Positions 825 through 60,545 of a stretch of 64,000 nucleotides of DNA are shown here, piece after piece. The position numbers and the translations under genes were made by a program. The first letter of the stretch is position 1; every line of letters starts with the position of its first letter. Source of the stretch: Escherichia phage dw-ec; sequence record OL739525.1, one strand, 5' to 3'. The notes beneath the pieces are model-generated. The model was not told where the DNA came from and did no database searches. It saw only the letters and a list, made by a program, of their open reading frames with translations.

Positions 825-1169
825 ATGCAAGAGAGTAAAAATGTTCCGTTGAGTAGTTTACGTCTAATGAAGTTTTACAAAGCTTGGCTTGCTGGTGAGG
901 TAGAAGGTCACACAACGAGTGGTTTGTGCATATGTTTGATTAAGTATGTAGAGGGAACATACCCTGATGAACTGTTACCTCGTCTACAACAGGAGATGAA
1001 ATCACAGTTTATTAGTGCAGGACTAGATTACAATTTCCCGTTTAATGAAGGTGGTTATGAGGAATACACCTTCGAACATAAAAAACATATTTGCCATAAA
1101 AACAAACATCGTATACAATGGGTGCTAGATAGAATTCAGGATTACGAAGGAGAGAAAAATGACAAATAA
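825..1169 (+). CDS. hypothetical protein, paralog family A member 1
   Basis: RBS gagaggag before ATG; shared motifs FYKxWL, GLCxCL, PFN, CHxN..RIQWVxDRI. Confidence 0.65.
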   Translation: MQESKNVPLSSLRLMKFYKAWLAGEVEGHTTSGLCICLIKYVEGTYPDELLPRLQQEMKSQFISAGLDYNFPFNEGGYEEYTFEHKKHICHKNKHRIQWVLDRIQDYEGEKNDK

Positions 1170-1557
1170 TATTCCGTTGAGTAGTGCAGAATTGATTCGA
1201 TTCTACAAAGCATGGATGGCTGATCACTTCAGCATGGATCGCACGAAGAATGGTCTGTGCACTTGTCTTGTAAATTTCCTAGCTTCAACACTGCAACCTG
1301 AAAACCCGACAGAGGATCAATGGATAACCTACTTAAAGATACGTAATAAGATTGTAAGAGAGATGAAATCTCAATTTCTTTGTGCTAACCTGTCTTATGT
1401 CTTTCCATTTAATATGGGCTTCCAAGATTATGAAAATGAAGTCAAACACAAAAGGTGTCATGAAAACCCACTCCGTGTGCAATGGGTTAAGGACAGAATT
1501 GAAGATTGTTTGAATAATTATGAGGATGTGTTATGCGAACAAAACAAATCTCGTTAA
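1159..1557 (+). CDS. hypothetical protein, paralog family A member 2
   Basis: family A motifs (FYKAWM, GLCTCL, PFN, CHEN..RVQWVKDRI); start overlaps upstream stop. Confidence 0.65.
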   Translation: MTNNIPLSSAELIRFYKAWMADHFSMDRTKNGLCTCLVNFLASTLQPENPTEDQWITYLKIRNKIVREMKSQFLCANLSYVFPFNMGFQDYENEVKHKRCHENPLRVQWVKDRIEDCLNNYEDVLCEQNKSR

Positions 1558-1898
1558 GTAGTACAATGTTGTTGATGTTTTATAAAAGGTGGTTGGAAGG
1601 AGATACTTCCCTTAATCGCACAGAGCACGGGTTGTGTTTATGTATTAATCATTTTGTGCGAAGTCATTATGCAAAGGATGTGCACAGTCCTAGATGGTAT
1701 GATGACATGGTGAACAGTTTGTTATATGAAATGCGTAAGCAATTTGAGGAAGCTGATCTTAGTGCTATTAATCCATTTAACAAAGCATATGCAGATTACT
1801 TCCTTGAAGTTGAGAACAAAATGTGTCATCTGAATCCGCTTCGCATTCAGTGGGTGAAAGATCGCATTGAAGATGCAAATAATGCTTGCATTGAATAA
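1533..1898 (+). CDS. hypothetical protein, paralog family A member 3
   Basis: family A motifs (FYKRWL, GLCLCI, PFN, CHLN..RIQWVKDRI). Confidence 0.65.
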   Translation: MRTKQISLSSTMLLMFYKRWLEGDTSLNRTEHGLCLCINHFVRSHYAKDVHSPRWYDDMVNSLLYEMRKQFEEADLSAINPFNKAYADYFLEVENKMCHLNPLRIQWVKDRIEDANNACIE

Positions 1899-4196: not shown

Positions 4197-4208
4197 AAGG
4201 GGAATGTT

Positions 4209-4646
4209 ATGTTTAAAGTTAATGCTGTTTACTGTTTCAAAAGTAAAGCTGCCTGTGAAGCTTTCTCTATGATCTCTGATGAAAATTTCAAAATGGCAGC
4301 TTTGATTGAAGGGTCTTGTTTCCGCGTCGAAAATGTTAGTGAATCGGGGTCTGTTTGCTCATTGACTTTATTGGACAGTGGAGATATTATTGAAGCTGGA
4401 CAGTATCCGTTCAGGAGTTGGGAGATATTGTTAGCTCGCGGAGAGCGTAACTTTTTTATGTGCGTGTCTGCGGGGGAAGCTGTGAAAGAAACTAAGGATG
4501 TTTCTGTTTACAATTCTGAATTTATAAGTTATAGTGAGTATCAACATCTGGAAGGCATTGTTGGTCACTTGTTATCTCTGATTGACATTGAATGTGACCT
4601 GCCTGAATCATTGAAAGAAGAGTTGAAAGCATTAGATCTGCTGTAA
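4209..4646 (+). CDS. hypothetical protein, tandem paralog family C member 3
   Basis: N-terminus MFKVNAVYCFKS resembles 3280 and 3741 genes. Confidence 0.5.
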   Translation: MFKVNAVYCFKSKAACEAFSMISDENFKMAALIEGSCFRVENVSESGSVCSLTLLDSGDIIEAGQYPFRSWEILLARGERNFFMCVSAGEAVKETKDVSVYNSEFISYSEYQHLEGIVGHLLSLIDIECDLPESLKEELKALDLL

Positions 4647-11880: not shown

Positions 11881-11909
11881 GAGAATACAGCAATGGTTTA
11901 GGAGTGGTT

Positions 11910-12581
11910 ATGAAAAAGTTTGTTGTTTACAGTCGTCTTTCTAAACAGAAAAAAGGCGAGGCACAATATGGTATGGAGAGCCAAGAGAACGATATCCGTT
12001 ACTTCTTAGACTCTGTGCCTGATGCGGAAGTTATTGGTCAATTTTCTGAATACTATTCGGGTAAGGGCGATTGGAAGCAACGTAAGGAACTGGTTAAAGC
12101 GGTTGAAATGTGTAAAGCTACCGGAGCAACTTTATTGGTAGCTAAAGTTGACCGCTTGGGTCGTAACAACGCCTCCGTAGCAACTCTTCTAGAAATGATC
12201 GATGTTAAGATAGCCATTATGCCAGATGCAGATAAAATGGTTATACAGCTTCTGTCTGTTCTGGCTGAACAAGAGGTTAGAGGTATTGCTGATCGTATTA
12301 AAAAGGGTCTTGCTGTAGCAAAAAGCAAAGGTGTTTTATTAGGCAGTGCTAATCCTAAAACTGCCGCTGCACGTAGAAAAGGAAAAATGGAATACAACTC
12401 TGTTAAAGCAGACGCTTTTGCAGAGACATTTCGTGAACGTTTGGAGATCCTTAGAGATTTAAATACACCTTACAAAACTATTGCTGAAAAATTCAATAGT
12501 AAGAAAATAGCAACAGCACGTGGTGGTAAATGGGATGCTAAAACTGTTTCTCGTTTGTGTGCCAGACTGAACATTAAATAG
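11910..12581 (+). CDS. small serine recombinase (resolvase/invertase family)
   Basis: N-terminal catalytic motifs VVYSRLSKQ and VAKVDRLGRN typical of resolvase-type serine recombinases; basic C-terminal tail; RBS aggagtgg. Confidence 0.65.
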   Translation: MKKFVVYSRLSKQKKGEAQYGMESQENDIRYFLDSVPDAEVIGQFSEYYSGKGDWKQRKELVKAVEMCKATGATLLVAKVDRLGRNNASVATLLEMIDVKIAIMPDADKMVIQLLSVLAEQEVRGIADRIKKGLAVAKSKGVLLGSANPKTAAARRKGKMEYNSVKADAFAETFRERLEILRDLNTPYKTIAEKFNSKKIATARGGKWDAKTVSRLCARLNIK

Positions 12582-13355: not shown

Positions 13356-13627
13356 TGGATAGACAAACCTTAAAAACAATGGCAGATGCTACTAATTCCC
13401 CGTACTTTGAAAAAGTAAGTAAGTTGGTAGCTCAAGCCGCAGAGGAAGGATATTATAACATAAACATCCACAACCCAAGTCTTATACTAGAAATGCCAAG
13501 TGATAAGAAGATACAAGAAAGTATCTGCGAAGGTATTGTTAGTTACTGGCGCGAGCGTGGGTGTGGTGCAAACATGGCTTTAGACAGTGCAAACATTGTA
13601 AGATATATAAATATTTCTTGGGGGTGA
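13355..13627 (+). CDS. hypothetical protein
   Basis: ORF overlapping upstream stop. Confidence 0.4.
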   Translation: MDRQTLKTMADATNSPYFEKVSKLVAQAAEEGYYNINIHNPSLILEMPSDKKIQESICEGIVSYWRERGCGANMALDSANIVRYINISWG

Positions 13628-13631
13628 TTTT

Positions 13632-14243
13632 ATGATTCAATGCACTCATATCCAAATTACTTGGAGAGATGAACTTTACCATTTGGGACAATTTACTGTA
13701 GGGGAGACATACCCTGTCATTAAACATAATCCTAACATCGCAAACTTTGATAGGATGGTTCTTGTTGAGGACGATCTGGGTCAAACTTATTCTTTAGATC
13801 TAAAATATCCGTTTTCTTACGGCTACGATTGGATCGTTACTTTTGAAGACGTGGAGGAAAATAAAACAATGAACGAAAAAAATTCTTGGTATTATCGTTG
13901 TGAACTGCCGCCAGTAGGTGAAAAGGTTATCTTTGTTCCTGATTTGGAAAGATATTCTTGGGACAGTTCTTATTCTGTTCCTAAAGAAGGCACCGAAGTT
14001 GAAGTTATTGCACATCGCACGACTTCGCATGGTAACGATGTAGCAGTTGTTTTCTGGGATGATGAAGGCGCTGCTTGTGCAGGTGGCTTTGTTGCAGGTA
14101 ACTTTGAACCCCTGCCAGATCCTTTGAAGGAGGCAATTTTAGGCGTAGCTTCTTTTGGACTCTCTTACACGTCTGCACAGGAGATCGTAGAAGGTATTTT
14201 AAACGGTACTGTTCCAAACGAAATTTTCAAACAGATTAAATAA
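13632..14243 (+). CDS. hypothetical protein
   Basis: ORF with RBS gggggtgattttATG. Confidence 0.5.
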   Translation: MIQCTHIQITWRDELYHLGQFTVGETYPVIKHNPNIANFDRMVLVEDDLGQTYSLDLKYPFSYGYDWIVTFEDVEENKTMNEKNSWYYRCELPPVGEKVIFVPDLERYSWDSSYSVPKEGTEVEVIAHRTTSHGNDVAVVFWDDEGAACAGGFVAGNFEPLPDPLKEAILGVASFGLSYTSAQEIVEGILNGTVPNEIFKQIK

Positions 14244-14258
14244 CAGTTGCACCCCGTT

Positions 14259-14283
14259 CTGCGGGGTGTTATTGTATATGTAA
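14259..14283 (+). terminator. putative weak intrinsic terminator
   Basis: hairpin caccccg/cggggtg followed by TTATT. Confidence 0.35.
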
Positions 14284-14294
14284 AGGAGGCGCTA

Positions 14295-14633
14295 ATGTAT
14301 TACACTGAAGACTACATATTGTATAACTTTTTTAAAGGTTGGTTGAAATGGGCGGAACAAGCTCCTGTCGGAGATTGTGTTTTTCCTTGGGATTCTCGTC
14401 AAGGCTTGTGTCGTTGTTTGGAAGATTGGCTTATAACCACAAACTACAATTCAGAAACTAAGAAATCTACATCAAACAGATTAAAAATGTTGTTTGAAGA
14501 AGATGGTTTAGATCCAATTTATCCTTTCGGTGAGGAAAGTTTCCACAATGGTCTTTTCCTTGGCACTCAACATTATGATAAAGATCGTGTAGATTGGGTA
14601 AAAGAAAAGGTAGCACAGTATGAATGGGGTTAA
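14295..14633 (+). CDS. hypothetical protein, paralog family A member 8
   Basis: RBS aaaggagg then ATG at 14295; motifs FFKGWL, GLCRCL, PFG, RVDWVKEKV. Confidence 0.55.
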   Translation: MYYTEDYILYNFFKGWLKWAEQAPVGDCVFPWDSRQGLCRCLEDWLITTNYNSETKKSTSNRLKMLFEEDGLDPIYPFGEESFHNGLFLGTQHYDKDRVDWVKEKVAQYEWG

Positions 14634-14823
14634 GAATTATCACCGCTGGTTAGAAAGCTATCTTAAGAAATGTGAACTTGGTGTTCCAGGTTATACTTAC
14701 GACACGGACGAGATCCTTGATGAAATGGAAGTTTGGTTTAAAGAGCCTCGTGAACTATTGGAAAACATTCTAATGGCTTGGGATGGTACGGCACAAAGCA
14801 TTGAAGGAGGTAGAAATGAGTAA
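14620..14823 (+). CDS. hypothetical protein
   Basis: ORF overlapping upstream gene end. Confidence 0.4.
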   Translation: MNGVKNYHRWLESYLKKCELGVPGYTYDTDEILDEMEVWFKEPRELLENILMAWDGTAQSIEGGRNE

Positions 14824-14958
14824 GAAATTGTTTAATATTCGTGAGAATCGTGATGGATCGTTCTCTGTAGTCAATGAGTTTAACGTTTCAGTTGGGACTT
14901 TTATTACTAAACGTCAAGCAGAACAAGTAAGAGATACTTTAAACAAGTAAATTTTTAA

Positions 14959-14968
14959 GGGGGGGGGG
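14959..14968 (+). repeat. G10 homopolymer tract in the ribosome-binding region of the 14973 gene
   Basis: ten consecutive G at 14959-14968, 4 nt before the ATG at 14973. Confidence 0.9.
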
Positions 14969-14972
14969 ACTT

Positions 14973-15392
14973 ATGTTAGGTAAGATCAAAGCCTTTTTCA
15001 AACGTATTATCGAAGGAAGTCCAACAGAAGGTGCATTAGGAAGATCCCTAACAGGAGAACCACTTGCCATAATTTCTATCAGTCGGCATGGTGGATATTC
15101 CATTCGACAAACACCTTTAGGTATAAAAGGTAGTATGCTTTCTTGGACAATATCTCAAGTTGGTGATAACAGGCTTGCAGCTATAGCGTTACTTCGTGGG
15201 GAGTATGACTACTGTTTATCAGCATCTTCTAAAAAGCACCTCATAGAGCACATTAGAGACAGAGTAGAAAGAGAAGGCGGATACTTCTTCGAAACTAAGA
15301 GAAACGAACAAGGAACTCTTGACTTCACTAAGGTTTACTGGGACAATCATACTCGTCAAACTGTTGAACAACTTCTGGAGGAAAGATGTTAA
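14973..15392 (+). CDS. hypothetical protein
   Basis: ORF immediately downstream of the G10 tract. Confidence 0.5.
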   Translation: MLGKIKAFFKRIIEGSPTEGALGRSLTGEPLAIISISRHGGYSIRQTPLGIKGSMLSWTISQVGDNRLAAIALLRGEYDYCLSASSKKHLIEHIRDRVEREGGYFFETKRNEQGTLDFTKVYWDNHTRQTVEQLLEERC

Positions 15393-15595
15393 AAGCTTTT
15401 GCTGTATACTCTACTGTAGGATTCTTTTATTGGATTATAGTTGTTGTTGGATGTTGGTTGGGTTCTTCTGTTGTGATGGGAGAATGGTTAACATACAATG
15501 TATTTGAATGGGATGTAGTTTGTAGATCATTACTTGTTATATGGACTGCTATTGTTTGTTGGATAACTGTTAGTCTAACATTAGATCTATATTGA
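15386..15595 (+). CDS. hypothetical membrane protein
   Basis: two hydrophobic segments (FFYWIIVVVGCWLG, LLVIWTAIVCWITVSL). Confidence 0.45.
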   Translation: MLKAFAVYSTVGFFYWIIVVVGCWLGSSVVMGEWLTYNVFEWDVVCRSLLVIWTAIVCWITVSLTLDLY

Positions 15596-15762
15596 TTAAT
15601 AGATGGTAGATAGATGATCATAGTTTATCTACCTTCACTTACGTTTCATACCTCACTATCGTGAGTAACATGAAACATTATTATATAGAAATCTACTACT
15701 CGCTATCGCTCGTAAACATATGTTTAGGGTACCATATTTTTTTGAAAAAGTCAATGCTGACT

Positions 15763-34673: not shown

Positions 34674-35758
34674 TAGAAGTCAAGCTCCTCATCATCAGAG
34701 AGATCTTTGTTAGCTGAATTCAATTTGTAATTAGTTAACTGAATCTCTTGGGCTGCTGACTGAATCAAATCAGGATTCAACCATTTTTCCATCCAAGCTA
34801 AAGGACTATGTTTAGGTGCTTTAAACTTGGCTTTCATTTTCAATCGACGATAAATAGGAGCAGCATTGAAATAAACCCACTGTTTAGACAATTCGGCGTT
34901 AAGACCTACAATAAAACGACCTTCACTAAACAGGTAGTCACACCACTGTTCCTCTTGTTCAACAACAGTGTCGAGGATCAAAGTCAACTCTTCAATATTG
35001 TCTTCGTAAATTTTACGCCAAATTGGGTCATGCATCAATGCATCAATTACAGCATAATCCATCTTAACATGCAAGATTTCATCTAGCATAATTTTCTGGA
35101 TCAGCTTACAAGCCCCAACAAACAATTGTTGTTCTGCCATAGCAAAAGTAGCAGAGAAGGAAGATATAAACTGAATACCTTCTAATCCAATCAGGGCTAC
35201 CATCCCTTTAAGAATCAGCAATCGAAGTTCATCGTTAGCTTCAATCAATCCTAGAGCATACTTATGACCAGCTTCTTCCAACTGACCCATGATATCAGCA
35301 ATGATACCCATACGATTGAAAATTTTATCATTAATCATAATCTGATTGATGACTTCAATTGGATCTGGAGTACATTGACGAATTATTTCAGAATACGTTA
35401 ACGCATGGAGAACTTCCATTTCACTCTGCTTCATCATCATAGCACAGGCTTCATTGTTACTCAAGAATGGAGAGAACAAAGTGATGATTGATTTTGCAAG
35501 AGAATCATTTTCCCATTGGAACGATAAGTTTTTAATCATAACATCATAGTTGTTTTTAGAACAAGCTACGAAATCTTTACGTGTCTGATCCAAGTTAACT
35601 TCGTTTTCATCCCAATCTTGTGCTTTTTGAAGTTTGTAGAGTTTGTGCATTTCTGGATAAGTTACGTTAACAGAATCAAAGATCCCTAATTGCTCCCCCA
35701 AAAATACTGGATATTTTCCTGTTTTGTAAACTTCGTTGTGTAAATTAATTGCTGCCAT
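34673..35758 (-). CDS. nrdB: ribonucleotide reductase small subunit (class I beta)
   Basis: size 361 aa, E..H iron-ligand pairs (DEILH), adjacent to nrdA. Confidence 0.7.
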   Translation of the reverse strand: MAAINLHNEVYKTGKYPVFLGEQLGIFDSVNVTYPEMHKLYKLQKAQDWDENEVNLDQTRKDFVACSKNNYDVMIKNLSFQWENDSLAKSIITLFSPFLSNNEACAMMMKQSEMEVLHALTYSEIIRQCTPDPIEVINQIMINDKIFNRMGIIADIMGQLEEAGHKYALGLIEANDELRLLILKGMVALIGLEGIQFISSFSATFAMAEQQLFVGACKLIQKIMLDEILHVKMDYAVIDALMHDPIWRKIYEDNIEELTLILDTVVEQEEQWCDYLFSEGRFIVGLNAELSKQWVYFNAAPIYRRLKMKAKFKAPKHSPLAWMEKWLNPDLIQSAAQEIQLTNYKLNSANKDLSDDEELDF

Positions 35759-36083
35759 TTAAATCCTCCACTATTTCACAAAAACCTCTTAAGCTTAAAA
35801 TATCTTCTTCCTCAAAATCATTGCTCCGGTAGAAAGCTTCCAGTGCTTCCCATACGCTTCTACCAAGTATAACAGTCACTGTTTCTTCACTTCTTGCCCT
35901 TGTTATTGCGTAAGCCGTGGCTTCTGGATAAAAAGATTCCCAAATCTGCATGTTAGCTATTTCAAGACCGCCAAGATAATGGTGACACCAAGTAGGGGTA
36001 AAATCTTCAGGGCGAATCAACAGAGGCTTAAACCCAGGTCGGTAGATTGGGGTTACTCCAGGTAAAACTATAAGTGTGCTCAT
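35745..36083 (-). CDS. hypothetical protein between nrdA and nrdB
   Basis: ATG at 36083 with RBS gaggagg. Confidence 0.4.
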   Translation of the reverse strand: MSTLIVLPGVTPIYRPGFKPLLIRPEDFTPTWCHHYLGGLEIANMQIWESFYPEATAYAITRARSEETVTVILGRSVWEALEAFYRSNDFEEEDILSLRGFCEIVEDLNGSN

Positions 36084-36092
36084 AATCCTCCT

Positions 36093-36115
36093 CAATAAAA
36101 AGGGGCTGAAGCCCC
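36093..36115 (-). terminator. intrinsic terminator or attenuator (minus strand) after nrdA
   Basis: hairpin ggggcttcagcccc followed on the minus strand by TTTTTATT. Confidence 0.55.
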
Positions 36116-36123
36116 TAGTTTCA

Positions 36124-38364
36124 TCACATCTTGCAAGCTTCACAACCACCATCAGAATCTTCTTGTGCTAAAGAGTCTGCTGATTTTGTTCTACTATTAA
36201 GGTAATACAACGACTTACCACCCAGTCTAGCAAAATTCAGAATAAACTGCATCTCAGCTTTCACTGATAAACGTCCACCTACCAATTTAGAATAATCTAG
36301 CCAAGAATCACAAGAAATTCCTTGGTCCGTAAACTTGGTAAAGATACCATACATTTCTGCAAGGTCTTTAGCCGGAGTGTCCCAGGCGGACTGGTAGAAC
36401 ATTTTCAGTTTTTCGTAGTCTGGAACAATAAATAATACACTACCTTTCTGACTTTGTTTATACATAATAGTATCACGAACAGGATACAGAGAGTTAGTAG
36501 TATTGCTTACCAAACTGCTGGACTCATTAGGTGCGATAGCAGCCAAGACACTGTTACGGATACCACCTTGTTCAATGATTTCAGCACGTAAGCCTTCCCA
36601 GTCCATTTTAAGATCAAAATTACCGATACTATCTACTGTTTTAGCATAAGTGTCAATTGGTAGCCAACCTTGAGGCCATTTGGTCTTATCAATCCATTCC
36701 GCATTACCTTTTTCCTTAGCCAGACGCAGAGAGGCTTTTGCCAACCAGAAGTAATGACGTTCTGCAAGTTCATGCATTAATTTTTTAGCGTAAGCATCTG
36801 AATAATTTACAAAATTACTTGCCAAGTAATGCGCTAAGTTTGTAATGCCTACACCAATAGATCTACGTGCTTTAGCAGTTATTTCGTTATGTTTAAATGG
36901 ATAATCCATTGTTTCAATAACGTTGTCAATTGTCAATACAGTGTAGTATGCAACATCCTCATATTCTTCAGGTAAGACACGACCAGCAACAATAGAAGAT
37001 AAGAAGCATAAAGCCAACTCTTGATCTTCTGTATTCTCACCAGTAAAGAGATCCGGCATACTGTGGAAAGCTTTAGTTGGTAAGAAGATCTCTTGACACA
37101 GGTTTGATTGATACACCGTATCCAGGAAAGGTGTATGGTTGTTAACGTTGTCAGCAAAGAACATGTAAATACGTCCTGTTTCTGCACGTTGAACAATAAT
37201 CTCTGTCAGAAGATCACGAGCCTTAACAAATTTTTTCTTAATGCGACGACGGCTTACTTTGTCATAAACTGCATCAAACTCTTCTTCACTTTTATACAAA
37301 GCTTCATAAAGTTCAGGAGCATCATCACAACTAACTAACATCCAATCTTCGTTTTTTGCTGCTCGACGCAAGAATGAACGGTTAACAACAATAGAATAAT
37401 CCAGTTTGTCTACTCGTTTATCTATAGGTGTTGTTGGATTCTTCAGTCGAATCAGATCGTCGAAGTCTGGTTCAAGTATGGTAAAGGTAACTGTAGCACT
37501 ACCTCCACGGCTTGCTTGCTTCGAAGCTCCAACACTATCTTCCATCCATTTCAGATACGGAAGAAGACCACCATGAATAATACGATTATTCTTAACACCT
37601 TGACCTGTGGCACGAGTTTGAAGATTAACACCAATACCTGCGTTATTCAACGTATACTCATGAGCTAAGTAATTAGCAATGGCTAAAGACTCTGCTGTGT
37701 CATCTGCACGGAATAAACAACAAGACGCACTTCCTTTGATTGGAGTTCGTAGAGTTGTCAGATATGGTGATGGCAGATTAATCTTAAGATCGCTAACATA
37801 AGTATACAGTTTTTTAATATCTTCTATACGGCGTTCTTTTGGTTGGATCTCCATAACCTTCATTGCGATACCAATGAAAAGAAACTGTGGAGACTCATGC
37901 ACCACATCGTTTACTGCATCTCGGATAAGATATTTATCCACCATCTGACGTAAAACAGAATAGCCATAAGTTAGATTTTTATTATGCTTTACAATCTTAC
38001 CAATTTCTTTGATCTCTTCATCAGTATAATCCATTTTAGCCCAATGTCCACGTTCTACCATATCATGATAAAAGGTATTCAGTGAAGGGATACTGTGGTA
38101 TCCCCCATGAGCCTGTTTGTAAATCATACCCAGAAGAAGTCTTCCTGCCATATCACTGTAAGCTTGTGTTTTCTTGTCAATACACGCTGCAATCATTGCT
38201 TTATGCAGATCACGTGTAGACACACCGTCATAACACCGCTTCACAGCTTCTAATTCAATTTCAGACCAGTTTAGTTTACCTGCTGCAAATTCAGACCACT
38301 TGCGAAGTTTTTCTGGATTAAACTCCTCTGTCTTACCGTTAGATTTAGTTACAAAACGAATCAA
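36124..38364 (-). CDS. nrdA: ribonucleotide reductase large subunit (class Ia alpha)
   Basis: N-terminal ATP-cone (VTKSNGKTEEFNPEKL), 746 aa, C-terminal Cys pair CEACKM as in class I NrdA. Confidence 0.9.
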   Translation of the reverse strand: MIRFVTKSNGKTEEFNPEKLRKWSEFAAGKLNWSEIELEAVKRCYDGVSTRDLHKAMIAACIDKKTQAYSDMAGRLLLGMIYKQAHGGYHSIPSLNTFYHDMVERGHWAKMDYTDEEIKEIGKIVKHNKNLTYGYSVLRQMVDKYLIRDAVNDVVHESPQFLFIGIAMKVMEIQPKERRIEDIKKLYTYVSDLKINLPSPYLTTLRTPIKGSASCCLFRADDTAESLAIANYLAHEYTLNNAGIGVNLQTRATGQGVKNNRIIHGGLLPYLKWMEDSVGASKQASRGGSATVTFTILEPDFDDLIRLKNPTTPIDKRVDKLDYSIVVNRSFLRRAAKNEDWMLVSCDDAPELYEALYKSEEEFDAVYDKVSRRRIKKKFVKARDLLTEIIVQRAETGRIYMFFADNVNNHTPFLDTVYQSNLCQEIFLPTKAFHSMPDLFTGENTEDQELALCFLSSIVAGRVLPEEYEDVAYYTVLTIDNVIETMDYPFKHNEITAKARRSIGVGITNLAHYLASNFVNYSDAYAKKLMHELAERHYFWLAKASLRLAKEKGNAEWIDKTKWPQGWLPIDTYAKTVDSIGNFDLKMDWEGLRAEIIEQGGIRNSVLAAIAPNESSSLVSNTTNSLYPVRDTIMYKQSQKGSVLFIVPDYEKLKMFYQSAWDTPAKDLAEMYGIFTKFTDQGISCDSWLDYSKLVGGRLSVKAEMQFILNFARLGGKSLYYLNSRTKSADSLAQEDSDGGCEACKM

Positions 38365-55042: not shown

Positions 55043-55117
55043 GGCCCTGTAGCTCAATGGGAGAGCTGTCGGCTCATAACCGATAGGTAGCTGGATCGAA
55101 ACCAGCCAGGGCCACCA
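55043..55117 (+). tRNA. tRNA-Met (anticodon CAU)
   Basis: acceptor ggccctg/cagggcc, anticodon loop ctCATaa, T-arm and encoded CCA (hand fold). Confidence 0.7.
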
Positions 55118-55119
55118 AC

Positions 55120-55194
55120 GTCTTTATGGTGTAATGGATAGCACAGGAGTCTTCTAAACTCTTAGTCAAGGTTCGATTCCTTGTAAAGACACCA
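55120..55194 (+). tRNA. tRNA-Arg (anticodon UCU)
   Basis: acceptor gtcttta/taaagac, anticodon loop ctTCTaa, T-loop ggttcgattcc, CCA (hand fold). Confidence 0.65.
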
Positions 55195-55390
55195 GAACAT
55201 TTTAACATGAATTAGCTCAAGTGATTTGAACCCACTACTGATCATGGTGGCAGAGAATGAGGCAAGTATGTCAGACATTATAAACAAAGGCCACGGTTAT
55301 ATTAGAAGACATAAATGCTCGAAGAGCACCGTTCGTTGAGAACGGGGGTTGGTGGAGTCACCATTCATGGTAAAATGTTTTAAAAAACTA

Positions 55391-55420
55391 TTGACAACTA
55401 ACATTATTTTATGTTAGATT
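55391..55420 (+). promoter_or_regulatory. sigma70-like promoter inside the tRNA cluster
   Basis: TTGACA at 55391-55396, TTAGAT/TAGATT 17-18 bp downstream. Confidence 0.45.
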
Positions 55421-55428
55421 ATAAGTAT

Positions 55429-55519
55429 GGAAGGGCAAATCGATGTGGCGACGAAAACGGTCTTGAAAACCGCCGAGCTTGAAAGAGCCTTGGGAGTTCG
55501 ACTCTCCCTCCTTCCGCCA
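55429..55519 (+). tRNA. tRNA-Ser (anticodon UGA), type II
   Basis: acceptor ggaaggg/tccttcc, anticodon loop ctTGAaa, long variable arm, CCA (hand fold). Confidence 0.6.
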
Positions 55520-55524
55520 GATTA

Positions 55525-55610
55525 GGTAGATTGGTGAAATGGTAGCCACAACAGTTTGCTAAACTGTAGTCGGAAACGGCGTGTAGGTTCGAGTCCTACA
55601 TCTACCGCCA
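55525..55610 (+). tRNA. tRNA-Ser (anticodon GCU), type II
   Basis: acceptor ggtagat/atctacc, anticodon stem acagt/actgt with loop ttGCTaa, long variable arm, CCA. Confidence 0.65.
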
Positions 55611-55740
55611 AGTTCTTTTTAATATAGCTTACTTTAATAGAGTAAACTTTCGGCAGATGGCCTCCACCATCTTACCGATAACTCATAGTTAGTGGTGTGA
55701 ACACTGGCTATTTTAAAAAGAATTTAAATATTAGTATTTA

Positions 55741-55828
55741 GGTGAGTTAATTCCGTAGGGGTAGCGGGGCAGACTGTAAATCTGTTATCATTGCGATTCG
55801 GGTGGTTCGACTCCATCACTCACCACCA
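55741..55828 (+). tRNA. tRNA-Tyr (anticodon GUA), type II
   Basis: acceptor ggtgagt/actcacc, anticodon loop ctGTAaa, long variable arm, CCA. Confidence 0.65.
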
Positions 55829-55834
55829 AATTAA

Positions 55835-55920
55835 GATGAGTTGGCTGAATGGTTTAAGCGGCGGACTGTTAATCCGTGTTCGAAAGAACGATATAGGTTC
55901 AAATCCTATACTCATCGCCA
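55835..55920 (+). tRNA. type II tRNA, anticodon apparently GUU (Asn-reading), identity uncertain
   Basis: acceptor gatgagt/actcatc, 3-bp D stem, anticodon stem gcgga/tccgt with loop ctGTTaa, variable-arm hairpin gttc-gaaa-gaac, CCA (hand fold). Confidence 0.5.
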
Positions 55921-55927
55921 GAATTAT

Positions 55928-56004
55928 GGACTTGTAGAGTTAAGGTAAACCCCCAGTCGCCAAGAGGCTTCTGGAATTGCAGGTATCGAATCCTGCCGAG
56001 TCCC
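55928..56004 (+). ncRNA. tRNA-like sequence, fold unresolved (possible degenerate tRNA)
   Basis: acceptor-like pairing ggacttg/cgagtcc and T-arm-like gcagg..cctgc, but no clean anticodon arm. Confidence 0.3.
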
Positions 56005-56010
56005 AGTTTT

Positions 56011-56085
56011 GCTCCTATAGTATAATGGCTATTACAACGGTTTTGTAATCCGTGGATCTCTGTTCGATTCAGAGTGGGAGCACCA
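56011..56085 (+). tRNA. tRNA-Thr (anticodon UGU), tentative
   Basis: acceptor gctccta/tgggagc, T-arm ctctg-ttcgatt-cagag, anticodon loop ttTGTaa with a U-U at the stem end, CCA. Confidence 0.5.
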
Positions 56086-56358
56086 ACATAACATTAAGAG
56101 CACTGTGATTGATCGTCGTATCCTGTGCACAAGGTCTGCTCGAAAGACAGTGTTCTTAGTATTGTGTTGATCACACAAAGAGTTACCTGAAACTTGACCG
56201 GAGTAGGGTTGGATGGGGCAAAAGAAGAAGCGGCTCTCCCATCGACAGCAACGAAGAATAATATTTGACTTTGGTTTTGTATTATTTTAAGTTAGCTTAC
56301 CGAACGTAGGGCTAGTCACCCAATGGGATACTCGTCACTGTCCCACTCAATAAAACTA

Positions 56359-56388
56359 TTGACAACCAATAGTAAAATGTAGTATAGT
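56359..56388 (+). promoter_or_regulatory. sigma70-like promoter inside the tRNA cluster
   Basis: TTGACA at 56359-56364, TATAGT at 56383-56388. Confidence 0.55.
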
Positions 56389-56399
56389 AAAGATGTAGG

Positions 56400-56473
56400 G
56401 CGTTCTTGGTGTAGCGGTAGCATTCCGTCCTTCCAAGTCGGCGGCACGAGTTCGATCCTCGTAGAACGCTCCA
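56400..56473 (+). tRNA. tRNA-Gly (anticodon UCC)
   Basis: acceptor gcgttct/agaacgc, T-arm acgag-ttcgatc-ctcgt, anticodon loop ctTCCaa, CCA. Confidence 0.6.
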
Positions 56474-56571
56474 AATTATTTAATAAAGGGTTGCCAGAAA
56501 ACTTTCTCTTTTACTCATGGTTTTCTCCTTCTCTCACACCTCTTCTGGTTGCCCTTCATTAAATGATTTAT

Positions 56572-56647
56572 TGGTTTGTAGTGTAGTCCGGTAGCACACG
56601 ACACTTTGACTGTCGTAGGTTTGGTTCAAATCCAGACAGACCAGCCA
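56572..56647 (+). tRNA. tRNA-Gln (anticodon UUG)
   Basis: U1-A72 acceptor tggtttg/cagacca, D stem gtgt/gcac, anticodon stem cgaca/tgtcg with loop ctTTGac, CCA. Confidence 0.65.
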
Positions 56648-56652
56648 TATAA

Positions 56653-56729
56653 CGGAATTTAGCTCAGTTTGGTAGAGCATACGCTTTGGGAGCGTAGGGT
56701 CGCAGGTTCGAATCCTGCAATTCCGACCA
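56653..56729 (+). tRNA. tRNA-Pro (anticodon UGG)
   Basis: acceptor cggaatt/aattccg, anticodon stem tacgc/gcgta with loop ttTGGga, T-loop ggttcgaatcc, CCA. Confidence 0.7.
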
Positions 56730-56735
56730 ATCAAA

Positions 56736-56809
56736 TGTTTCGTAGTTCAATGGTAGAACCCACGACTGATAATCGTGAGACACAAGTTCGATTCTTGTCG
56801 AAACAACCA
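56736..56809 (+). tRNA. tRNA-Ile (anticodon GAU)
   Basis: acceptor tgtttcg/cgaaaca, anticodon stem cacga/tcgtg with loop ctGATaa, T-arm acaag-ttcgatt-cttgt, CCA. Confidence 0.65.
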
Positions 56810-56811
56810 GT

Positions 56812-56881
56812 TTCCCGTTAGACTTACAGGATAAGAGTTCCACAACTTATTGTGATGCTGGTTCGAATCCAGCACGGGATA
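56812..56881 (+). ncRNA. tRNA-like sequence with canonical T-arm but aberrant anticodon region
   Basis: T-arm gctgg-ttcgaat-ccagc and partial acceptor pairing; anticodon arm would need a 10-nt loop; no CCA. Confidence 0.3.
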
Positions 56882-56887
56882 CATAAT

Positions 56888-56966
56888 AGCGGGATAGAGG
56901 AGTCTGGTCGTCCTCGCCAGTTTCATATGCTGGAGATCATCGGTTCAAATCCGATTCCCGCCTCCA
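56888..56966 (+). tRNA. tRNA with anticodon CAU (Met or lysidine-Ile), A1-C72 mismatch
   Basis: acceptor agcggga/tcccgcc, D stem gagg/cctc, anticodon loop ttCATat, T-arm atcgg-ttcaaat-ccgat, CCA. Confidence 0.6.
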
Positions 56967-58469: not shown

Positions 58470-60545
58470 GTGGCAAAGAAAAAGGCAGCAGGTAGTTTAG
58501 CTGGAGTAGATATTGAAGTAAAGGCTCAACCAGGTAAACAGACTCTTGCAATGGATTTAATGCCAGAAGTTATGATTTATGGTGGTGCCGCTGGATGTGT
58601 TTCTGCTGAAACGGAATATCTTACAAAAGATGGTTGGAGGCAGATTAGTGAATATTCGGGAGAGGATATTTACCAATACAATCCTAAGAATAAGCGTTTA
58701 GAATTGGTAACACCTTATTTTGTAGAATACGATTTAAATGGAGATAACCTATACAGAATAACAAATGGTGTAGGATTGTTCCAAGAACTTAGTATGGAAC
58801 ACCGTTTTGTATTCTATAAGAAAAAGAAATCAAAGAAACATTTCGAGATTCTTGTAGGAGATCTTATTGCATTACAGCAAATAGGAAAACCCCTTCAAGG
58901 TTATGTAGAAAATCCATTCGGTAAACGTGTTCCTTTTAACATACCTGGTAAAAAGAGCACTTACTTAAAAATACACGAGGTTATTTCAACAGATGATAAG
59001 AAATATTGTTTTGAGACTCCAAGCAGTTATATTGTCTTTAGACGTGGCGATCACTGCTTCGTTACTGGGAATAGCGGCAAGTCTCGTCTGCTATTGCTGA
59101 AAGCTTTAAAATACGCCTACAAAGACCCTTTGTTTGGTGGAATACTTTTCCGTAAGAACACCACTGCTCACCGTAAACCAGGTGGTCTGTTTACAGAAGC
59201 AAAACGTTTGTATCTTCCTTTACAACCGCACGTAAAAGAAAGTACAATGGATATCATTTTTGAAGCCACTGGTGGTGGAACCCTCAAATTTGACCATTTG
59301 GAAAATGATAACGTAACAGCAGAAACAAACCATCAGGGTACACAGTATTCAATGGTAGGTTTTGACGAGTTAACCCACTTCACACAATATGAAATGCTCT
59401 ATCTTCTGGGACGTATGCGTTCAGAGTCAGAAACAAGTTTCATGTTGTGCACATGTAACCCTGACGCAGATAGTTGGGTTTTGAATTGGGTGTTACCTTA
59501 TCTTGATGAGGGTGGTTATCCTAGAGAAGATATGTGTGGTAAACAAAAATATTTCATCATTGTTAACGATGAACCTGTTTTTGCTGACACACCTGAAGAA
59601 CTGAAAGAAAAATATCCAGAAAACTGTTTCATGGAAAACCCTAATACAGGGGAGACAGTTGTTATTGAACCACAAACTTTCGTATTTATTGGTGGGACAA
59701 TATTTGATAACCCAGAACTCATTAGGCTTAACCCTAATTACTTAGCACAGCTTAAATCACAAACAGCGATTAAAAGAGCACAGCTTCTGGACGGTTGTTG
59801 GTTTGCACGTATTCAGAAAGAATCTTTCTTTCAACGTGAATGGTTACATAAAATATCTTATAAAGATGTTCCTAACAATCTTAAACTAATGCGAGCATGG
59901 GATAAAGCTGTTTCAGTTCCTACAGAAACTTACCGTTATCCAGACTATACAACATCTGTCAAAATGGGTAAAGACCAAGATGGTAATATCTACATCTTTG
60001 GCGACTATGATTATGATGCTGTGGATGAGAAAAGTAAAATTTTTGGAAGGTTTCGAAGACTACCTGGGGAAAGGGATAACCTGATTCTAAATCAATGTAA
60101 GATCGATGGACCAGAAGTTACAGTAGTTCTTCCTAAAGACCCATCTGGTGCTGGGACAATAGAATATACAGAGTCTGCAAAGAAACTCATTCTGGAAGGT
60201 TTTGTTGTTAAACCAGATGCTATGCCAGGTAACAAGAAAAAGCTTCAGCGTTTTATGCCTTTTAGTAGTGCGTGTCAAAACGGTTTTGTTTATATTGTTG
60301 AAGATTCTTTCCCTAATGTGGAAACTTTAACCCACTTTTATAAAGAATTGGAATCTTTCAATGGTGAAAGATCTACAGCCACTATTAAAGATGACATTCC
60401 CGATGCTGCTGCCTCTTGTTTTAATACTCTGTCAAAAGAGAATACTTTCAAGGCAGTAGCTATCCCTACAACAACAAATGCTCCTACAGGATACAGTAGA
60501 ATGAACAGCGGATTTCACCAACCGTATAGTGTCCGTAAAAGATAA
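58470..60545 (+). CDS. terminase large subunit (intein-containing precursor)
   Basis: Walker A split as GGAAG / SGKS around the insertion, Walker B MVGFDELTHF, nuclease domain downstream. Confidence 0.8.
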   Translation: MAKKKAAGSLAGVDIEVKAQPGKQTLAMDLMPEVMIYGGAAGCVSAETEYLTKDGWRQISEYSGEDIYQYNPKNKRLELVTPYFVEYDLNGDNLYRITNGVGLFQELSMEHRFVFYKKKKSKKHFEILVGDLIALQQIGKPLQGYVENPFGKRVPFNIPGKKSTYLKIHEVISTDDKKYCFETPSSYIVFRRGDHCFVTGNSGKSRLLLLKALKYAYKDPLFGGILFRKNTTAHRKPGGLFTEAKRLYLPLQPHVKESTMDIIFEATGGGTLKFDHLENDNVTAETNHQGTQYSMVGFDELTHFTQYEMLYLLGRMRSESETSFMLCTCNPDADSWVLNWVLPYLDEGGYPREDMCGKQKYFIIVNDEPVFADTPEELKEKYPENCFMENPNTGETVVIEPQTFVFIGGTIFDNPELIRLNPNYLAQLKSQTAIKRAQLLDGCWFARIQKESFFQREWLHKISYKDVPNNLKLMRAWDKAVSVPTETYRYPDYTTSVKMGKDQDGNIYIFGDYDYDAVDEKSKIFGRFRRLPGERDNLILNQCKIDGPEVTVVLPKDPSGAGTIEYTESAKKLILEGFVVKPDAMPGNKKKLQRFMPFSSACQNGFVYIVEDSFPNVETLTHFYKELESFNGERSTATIKDDIPDAAASCFNTLSKENTFKAVAIPTTTNAPTGYSRMNSGFHQPYSVRKR
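58596..59072 (+). mobile_element. mini-intein (Hint domain, about 159 aa) inserted in the terminase Walker A motif
   Basis: begins CVSAETEYLTKDGW (Cys1, block A), ends ...HCFVTGN followed by Ser+1; flanking exteins rejoin to GGAAGSGKS. Confidence 0.65.

Follow-up and report, generated by a model that had tools for sequence, protein, structure and literature searches.

The run of ten G residues 4 nt ahead of the start codon of a conserved early gene in Escherichia phage dw-ec (OL739525.1) is best read, with a probability of about 0.6, as a slippage-prone Shine-Dalgarno (SD) sequence that has recently expanded and that would act as a dimmer of translation, or be nearly neutral, rather than as an evolved ON/OFF switch. 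In the window, that is, the whole stretch of 64,000 nucleotides that was analyzed, the run occupies positions 14959-14968 and is followed by ACTT and then by the ATG at 14973. The initial annotation had singled it out as a rare run in DNA of roughly 40% GC placed 4 nt before this ATG, and both the positions and the rarity were confirmed: the GC content of the window was 38.4%, within the 64 kb no further run of G or C reached 7 residues (the runner-up being a single C6 at 62906), and A or T homopolymers reached a maximum of 7. The number of G10 runs expected in the window was only ~0.003 under independent-base and first-order models alike, so base composition and chance are inadequate to account for it. 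The surrounding features are compiled in Table 1.

Table 1. Features in and around the G-run (positions in the window).
Feature	Position	Strand	Remarks
Terminator-like hairpin, upstream edge of the five-gene unit	14249..14269	+	Terminator at the homologous place in the ASO2A record
112-aa gene	14295-14633	+	SD is the canonical AAGGAGG
67-aa gene	14620-14823	+	
44-aa gene, same transcription unit as the 139-aa gene	14816-14950	+	SD GGAGG; TAA 8 nt before the G-run
T5 run directly 5' of the SD	14952..14956	+	T4, T5, or T6 among relatives
Full SD element, AAG(10)	14957..14968	+	AAGGGGG(G) in relatives, which departs from AAGGAGG at one base
G10 homopolymer, expanded core of the SD	14959..14968	+	Relatives have G4-G7 at the homologous site
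139-aa gene served by the G-run	14973..15392	+	Homologue of phAPEC8_0057 (gp57) and phi92 gp027; phrog_14510
GCCUUUUUC, codons 7-9	14991..14999	+	Predicted partner of longer G-runs, enclosing the AUG; weak, z = -0.66
69-aa hydrophobic protein gene	15386..15595	+	ATG and the preceding stop (139-aa gene) share bases in ATGTTAA
Hairpin 3' of the 69-aa gene	15605..15633	+	Rho-independent terminator annotated at the homologous position in ASO2A

That the tract forms the ribosome-binding site of the 139-aa gene, as first proposed from the letters of the window, is supported by an independent annotation, by the SD motifs of orthologues, and by computed duplex energies with the anti-SD, all of which point to the G-run as the SD of this gene. 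In phage ESCO13, the depositors' record labels the homologous AAGGGGG a ribosome_binding_site. Orthologues with 33 to 68% protein identity carried SD-like motifs at the same place, namely GAGGAG (phiWec179 and L046), AGGAG (phi92), GGAGGGGG (L044/L045), and AAAGGGGA (L047); together with the AAGGGGG, AAGGGAG, and AAGAGGGG of other relatives, a purine-rich motif was kept in position before the orthologous ATG. The duplex with the 3' end of 16S rRNA (ACCUCCUUA) was computed at -11.2 to -11.7 kcal/mol for UUAAGGGGG(G) and at -10.9 kcal/mol for a pure G-run, in which the central U of CCUCC is in a G-U wobble. The spacing of 4 nt between the end of the G-run and the ATG falls within the ~4 to 10 nt at which an SD precedes a genuine start codon, and the ORF is a conserved gene. 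With a canonical SD (AAGGAGG), the G-run shares a position 4 to 9 nt before the AUG, a purine-rich composition, a strong predicted anti-SD duplex, positional conservation in orthologues, and annotation as a ribosome-binding site (in ESCO13); it differs in that a G takes the place of the central A, giving a homopolymer prone to slipping that has here reached 10 G. Because the SD is expanded to 10 G, the pairing register and the spacing are ambiguous in this genome.

Other short G-run SDs were seen in the window, namely TTGGGGGTGATTTTATG (13620-13624) for a 203-aa gene at 13632 and AAAAGGGGAATGTTATG (4199-4202) for a 145-aa gene at 4209. Of these, the G5 at 13620, which lies inside the upstream coding sequence, showed no length variation among 22 relatives. 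On the minus strand, an ORF at 14939..15103, in which the C10 would code for PPP, was judged spurious because it overlaps conserved plus-strand genes. It appears as a 47-aa CDS annotated across the G-run in the record of phage BI-EHEC (OL505078; L006/L026), in which a 1-nt insertion also truncates the adjoining 67-aa gene; both the CDS and the insertion are probably over-annotation or an error in the sequence of that record.

The G-run falls within a series of small plus-strand early genes, of which five (14295-15595) make up the local unit. All five proteins were assigned to PHROG families of unknown function, and none had a match in Pfam or PADLOC. The 139-aa protein itself matched its PHROG family at 1e-71 and had homologues in 131 phage records; it is conserved across the subfamily, with identities of 42% to phi92 gp027 and 34% to a Klebsiella phage homologue. 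A sequence search of the PDB returned nothing for this protein and no PDB fold matched it; an AlphaFold2 model built with 15 homologues was confident (pLDDT 88, pTM 0.75) and had a mixed alpha/beta layout. The overlap between its stop codon and the ATG of the 69-aa gene makes translational coupling of the latter to the former possible. Farther upstream, ~2.4 kb from the tract, lies the gene (11904-12581) for a serine recombinase (“DNA invertase”), which in related contigs matches PF00239 Resolvase. An invertible segment near this gene was considered and set aside, the flanking inverted repeats not being convincing.

A 2-kb segment around the tract matched 70 GenBank phage records, 64 of them at 95% identity or higher, and nearly all were Escherichia phages of the genus Phapecoctavirus (Stephanstirmvirinae; the phAPEC8 group, with genomes of ~150 kb). 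By this similarity the window is that of a Phapecoctavirus, a phAPEC8-like E. coli myovirus, and its nearest relative is phage ETEC-TG (99.5% over 25 kb); none of the records matched was identical to it. The homologous site was read directly in ~36 relatives (11 GenBank phages, 24 Logan/ENA/NCBI contigs, and one JGI contig), although some of the Logan contigs are perhaps re-assemblies of phages already counted. The modal allele was G5 (n = 20), followed by G6 (n = 10; e.g., ETEC-TG and phAPEC8), G7 (n = 2; Mt1B1_P17 and L029), and G4 (n = 1; Schickermooser); two relatives had an interrupted AAGGGAG (L038 and L043) and one an interrupted AAGAGGGG (L025). These interrupted alleles keep their complementarity to the anti-SD, whereas the mutability of a homopolymer would be lost in them. 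None of the ~36 relatives read directly had 8 or more G, and the tract in dw-ec is 4 G longer than the G6 of ETEC-TG. All 60 GenBank records listed spanned 195 to 198 nt across the region for which the query has 201 nt, so that no listed GenBank relative comes near G10; the span in phage EP57 fits the length of a G5 allele. Pattern scans for the locus gave no match in IMG/VR and one match, a G6, in JGI metagenomes. With megablast, the 201-nt region likewise had no match among complete E. coli genomes or plasmids, leaving no prophage or plasmid copy for comparison.

The initial annotation considered slipped-strand changes in the length of the tract and took a uniform length across deep reads and related isolates, with no effect on expression, as evidence against its reading. 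Among related isolates, length was found to vary instead, with G4, G5, G6, and G7 among relatives, as slippage would produce, and the flanks of the tract were otherwise identical among the length alleles, the adjacent T-run aside. In a 3.4-kb alignment of 22 sequences, the G-run was the sole multi-allelic indel site. On a neighbor-joining tree of 28 sequences, for which 2562 gap-free columns outside the tract were used, the state of the tract changed at least 10 times, compared with an average of 0.15 changes per site in the surroundings and a maximum of 7 changes for any substitution column. To judge from these alignments, the tract is clearly the most changeable site of the region. As substitution columns also reach 7 changes, however, part of the homoplasy of the tract may stem from recombination between phages rather than from repeated slippage. 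The T-run 5' of the SD was T4 in ESCO13, L038, L043, and L048 and T6 in L023 and L025; since this run is length-polymorphic too, the whole intercistronic spacer of 17 to 22 nt appears to be a slippage hot spot. Given that relatives have an SD of G4 to G7 at this place, the G10 would be the expansion of an existing functional G-run and not a de novo element.

We propose that the canonical AAGGAGG gave way to AAGGGGG in this clade and that slippage of the resulting homopolymer during replication accounts for the differing numbers of G among isolates. The G10 outlier would most probably be a recent slippage expansion, its exact count being uncertain by ~1 base; a counterpoint is that a step of +4 from G6 seems large for a single slippage event. 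A G-run can be expected to pair with the CCUCC core of the anti-SD in any register, with a G-U wobble at the central U, so that lengthening would not abolish initiation. Either the UAA-AUU pairs at the flank or an optimal spacing would nevertheless be lost on expansion, and a hairpin with the downstream GCCUUUUUC would be slightly favored. The tract would thus behave as a mutational dimmer or as a near-neutral polymorphism under stabilizing selection for G5-G6.

The size of the translational effect was estimated with our own simplified thermodynamic model of initiation, in which the energy of the anti-SD duplex is added to the cost of opening the mRNA and to a penalty for spacing; the spacing constants follow the published RBS Calculator. 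Kinetics, standby sites, and coupling are not part of the model, so that the fold changes are rough. Relative to G6 (1.00), predicted initiation was 0.06 for G3, 0.29 for G4, 1.04 for G5, 0.70 for G7, 0.30 for G8, 0.28 for G10, and 0.20 to 0.36 for G11-G15. The model optimum thus lay at G5/G6, and from G8 on there was a plateau without an OFF state, since at optimal spacing any stretch of five to seven G would be available to the ribosome for pairing. On this model the tract is expected to be a roughly 3- to 4-fold dimmer and not to have an OFF state, the drop at G10 being ~3- to 4-fold and the change anywhere within G4-G15 at most ~4-fold. The dimming may pass on to the overlapping 69-aa gene if the two genes are coupled. 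The order of the natural alleles (G5 > G6 > G7, G4) matched the ranking by the model, as would be expected if selection keeps a strong and well-spaced SD. The predicted cost of a hairpin between a longer G-run and GCCUUUUUC was small, and the local fold around the tract was no better than that of shuffled sequences (z = -0.66).

Among the other explanations of the G10, an artefact of sequencing or assembly is the most probable: the true length would be G5-G7, as in relatives, and would have been over-called because of a platform prone to homopolymer errors, the polishing, or a k-mer path. The length of 10 is indeed unique against the ~36 sequences read directly and the 60 listed GenBank relatives, the nearest relative at 99.5% identity has G6, and the longest homopolymer of the window is also its least reliable call. 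Yet the site demonstrably varies in nature, and over the ~62 kb compared with ETEC-TG (~290 substitutions) the additional 4 G were one of just 14 indel events, only four others of which were homopolymer length differences, of 1 to 4 nt; with indels this scarce, and only a minority of them at homopolymers, noise in homopolymers is not a general trait of this assembly. An over-call of +4 would moreover exceed typical consensus errors, and we regard an artefact as unlikely, though far from negligible. A function of the G-run as a G-quadruplex or as a C/U-rich RNA or protein target, and not simply as an SD, is suggested by analogy only, the RepG small RNA (sRNA) of Helicobacter pylori sensing the length of a G-repeat in a 5' untranslated region (UTR) (PMC8322730), and we hold it to be very improbable. 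An intramolecular G-quadruplex can be dismissed on reasoning from the sequence, as a single G10 is too little for four G-tracts with loops; in addition, no Rfam family was found in the region of the tract, the local fold did not rise above shuffles, C-runs of at least 6 were limited to the one C6 in the 64-kb window, and relatives function with G4-G5 or with interrupted motifs. The comparison with 5'UTR G-repeats is nonetheless instructive. In H. pylori, the G-repeat of tlpB is read by RepG, which results in graded translation (Pernitzsch 2014; reviewed in PMC8322730), and in Mycobacterium tuberculosis a poly-G insertion in the espR 5'UTR tunes translation (PMC11898584). Like the G-run, both are variable G homopolymers before a start codon, and they alter translation gradually and without a frameshift, as is predicted for the G-run; tlpB requires a trans-acting sRNA, however, and espR refolds its UTR, whereas the G-run is itself the putative SD and has no known partner RNA and no significant predicted structure.

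A phase-variation switch, the candidate function offered for the tract in the initial annotation, was not borne out: against the ~36 sequences read directly and the 60 listed GenBank records, the long tract was confined to one genome, the modal G5 is too short to switch at high frequency, and the model predicted a ~3.5-fold drop at G10 without an OFF state. The related proposal that the SD tract was selected for hypermutability, so that reversible changes in length would spread the levels of the 139-aa protein, along with those of its overlapping 69-aa membrane neighbor, in a form of bet-hedging toward hosts or defenses, can draw on the recurrence of length changes between perfectly conserved flanks, on a G10 long enough for high slippage rates, and on precedents in phages and in 5'UTR G-repeats (tlpB and espR). 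Close isolates do differ in length (G4/G5/G6/G7/G10 with identical flanks), but no tract of a length that would slip at high frequency was maintained in the lineage, G5 being modal and none of the ~36 relatives reaching 8, with the 60 listed records agreeing; the predicted response is a shallow plateau instead of a switch, non-mutable interrupted alleles (AAGGGAG and AAGAGGGG) are tolerated, distant orthologues have ordinary SDs, and the 139-aa gene is without known function or link to defense. Selection for hypermutability is quite unlikely, and the failure of the lineage to conserve a long tract speaks against an evolved contingency locus. It also appears improbable that the poly-G SD is a genuine translational contingency locus at which continual slippage creates subpopulations with a varied dose of the early and membrane proteins and at which G10 was selected on a particular host. 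Among the phage precedents, the agt and rIIA genes of T2/T4 contain frameshifting homopolymer simple sequence repeat (SSR) contingency loci, and phage homopolymers of at least 6 are reported to mutate at ~3e-4 per read (Gomez, Barrick and Waters 2025 preprint, PMC12633550); polyG tracts are also connected with phase variation in receptor-binding genes of Campylobacter Fletchervirus (Sorensen et al. 2021, Cell Rep 35:109214, cited in PMC10877375). These loci share with the G-run a homopolymer in a lytic phage whose length differs in close relatives, presumably by polymerase slippage. They lie within reading frames and act ON/OFF by frameshift, whereas the G-run is intercistronic, within an SD, and predicted only to modulate initiation, and what is known of it here comes from the sequences of isolates. 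In bacteria, the poly-G/C tracts of Neisseria porA/opc and Bordetella fim are upstream or promoter-spacer homopolymers that undergo phase variation. Like the G-run they are noncoding G/C homopolymers, and their length sets the level of expression, as is predicted for the G-run; they differ in acting on -35/-10 spacing, and hence on transcription, and in being kept at 9 or more across strains, whereas the G-run is at an SD and long in one genome.

We consequently class the tract as a slippage-prone SD, on the grounds that a long tract is unmaintained, interruptions are tolerated, distant SDs are plain, the predicted effect is shallow, and the gene has no known role; on the sequences compared, it would be a fresh example of a polymorphic homopolymer of a kind already known. 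If nothing but slippage at a G-rich SD is involved, the use is practical, the site being a hot spot for miscalls and length polymorphism in Phapecoctavirus and a handy strain marker; several Phapecoctavirus genomes belong to candidates for phage therapy. If expression does scale with the number of G, the recently proposed idea of contingency loci in phages, which concerns frameshift switches, would be widened to include a graded control exerted through the ribosome-binding site, and the pair of 139-aa and 69-aa early genes would be pointed to as dosage-sensitive. Were a contingency locus nonetheless the true reading, no phase-variable element embedded in an SD and acting without a frameshift would have been described in a phage before it.

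The wider comparison also bore on the makeup of this genome. An exact protein match for the terminase large subunit (58551-60545) was found only in EP57 (OR544956), whereas the early region is nearest to ETEC-TG, which indicates a mosaic genome with recombination between Phapecoctavirus lineages. Two segments (1217-1846 and 35769-36152) were missing or replaced in ETEC-TG and look like mosaic cassettes on this alignment; the ORFs 1159..1557 (+), 1533..1898 (+), and 35745..36152 (-) had no significant Pfam match. Eleven tRNA genes were clustered at 55043-56963 (Rfam), and the intergenic DNA around this cluster contained most of the other indels relative to ETEC-TG, including 13-bp and 11-bp duplications and differences in A-runs. 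Among the records matching the 2-kb segment, Campylobacter phage B15 (MG065650), Acinetobacter phage ABPW7 (OP562383), and Klebsiella phage ZCKP1 (MH252123) were 97.5 to 98.3% identical to this coliphage across the segment; their non-Escherichia host labels may reflect contamination or claims of polyvalence.
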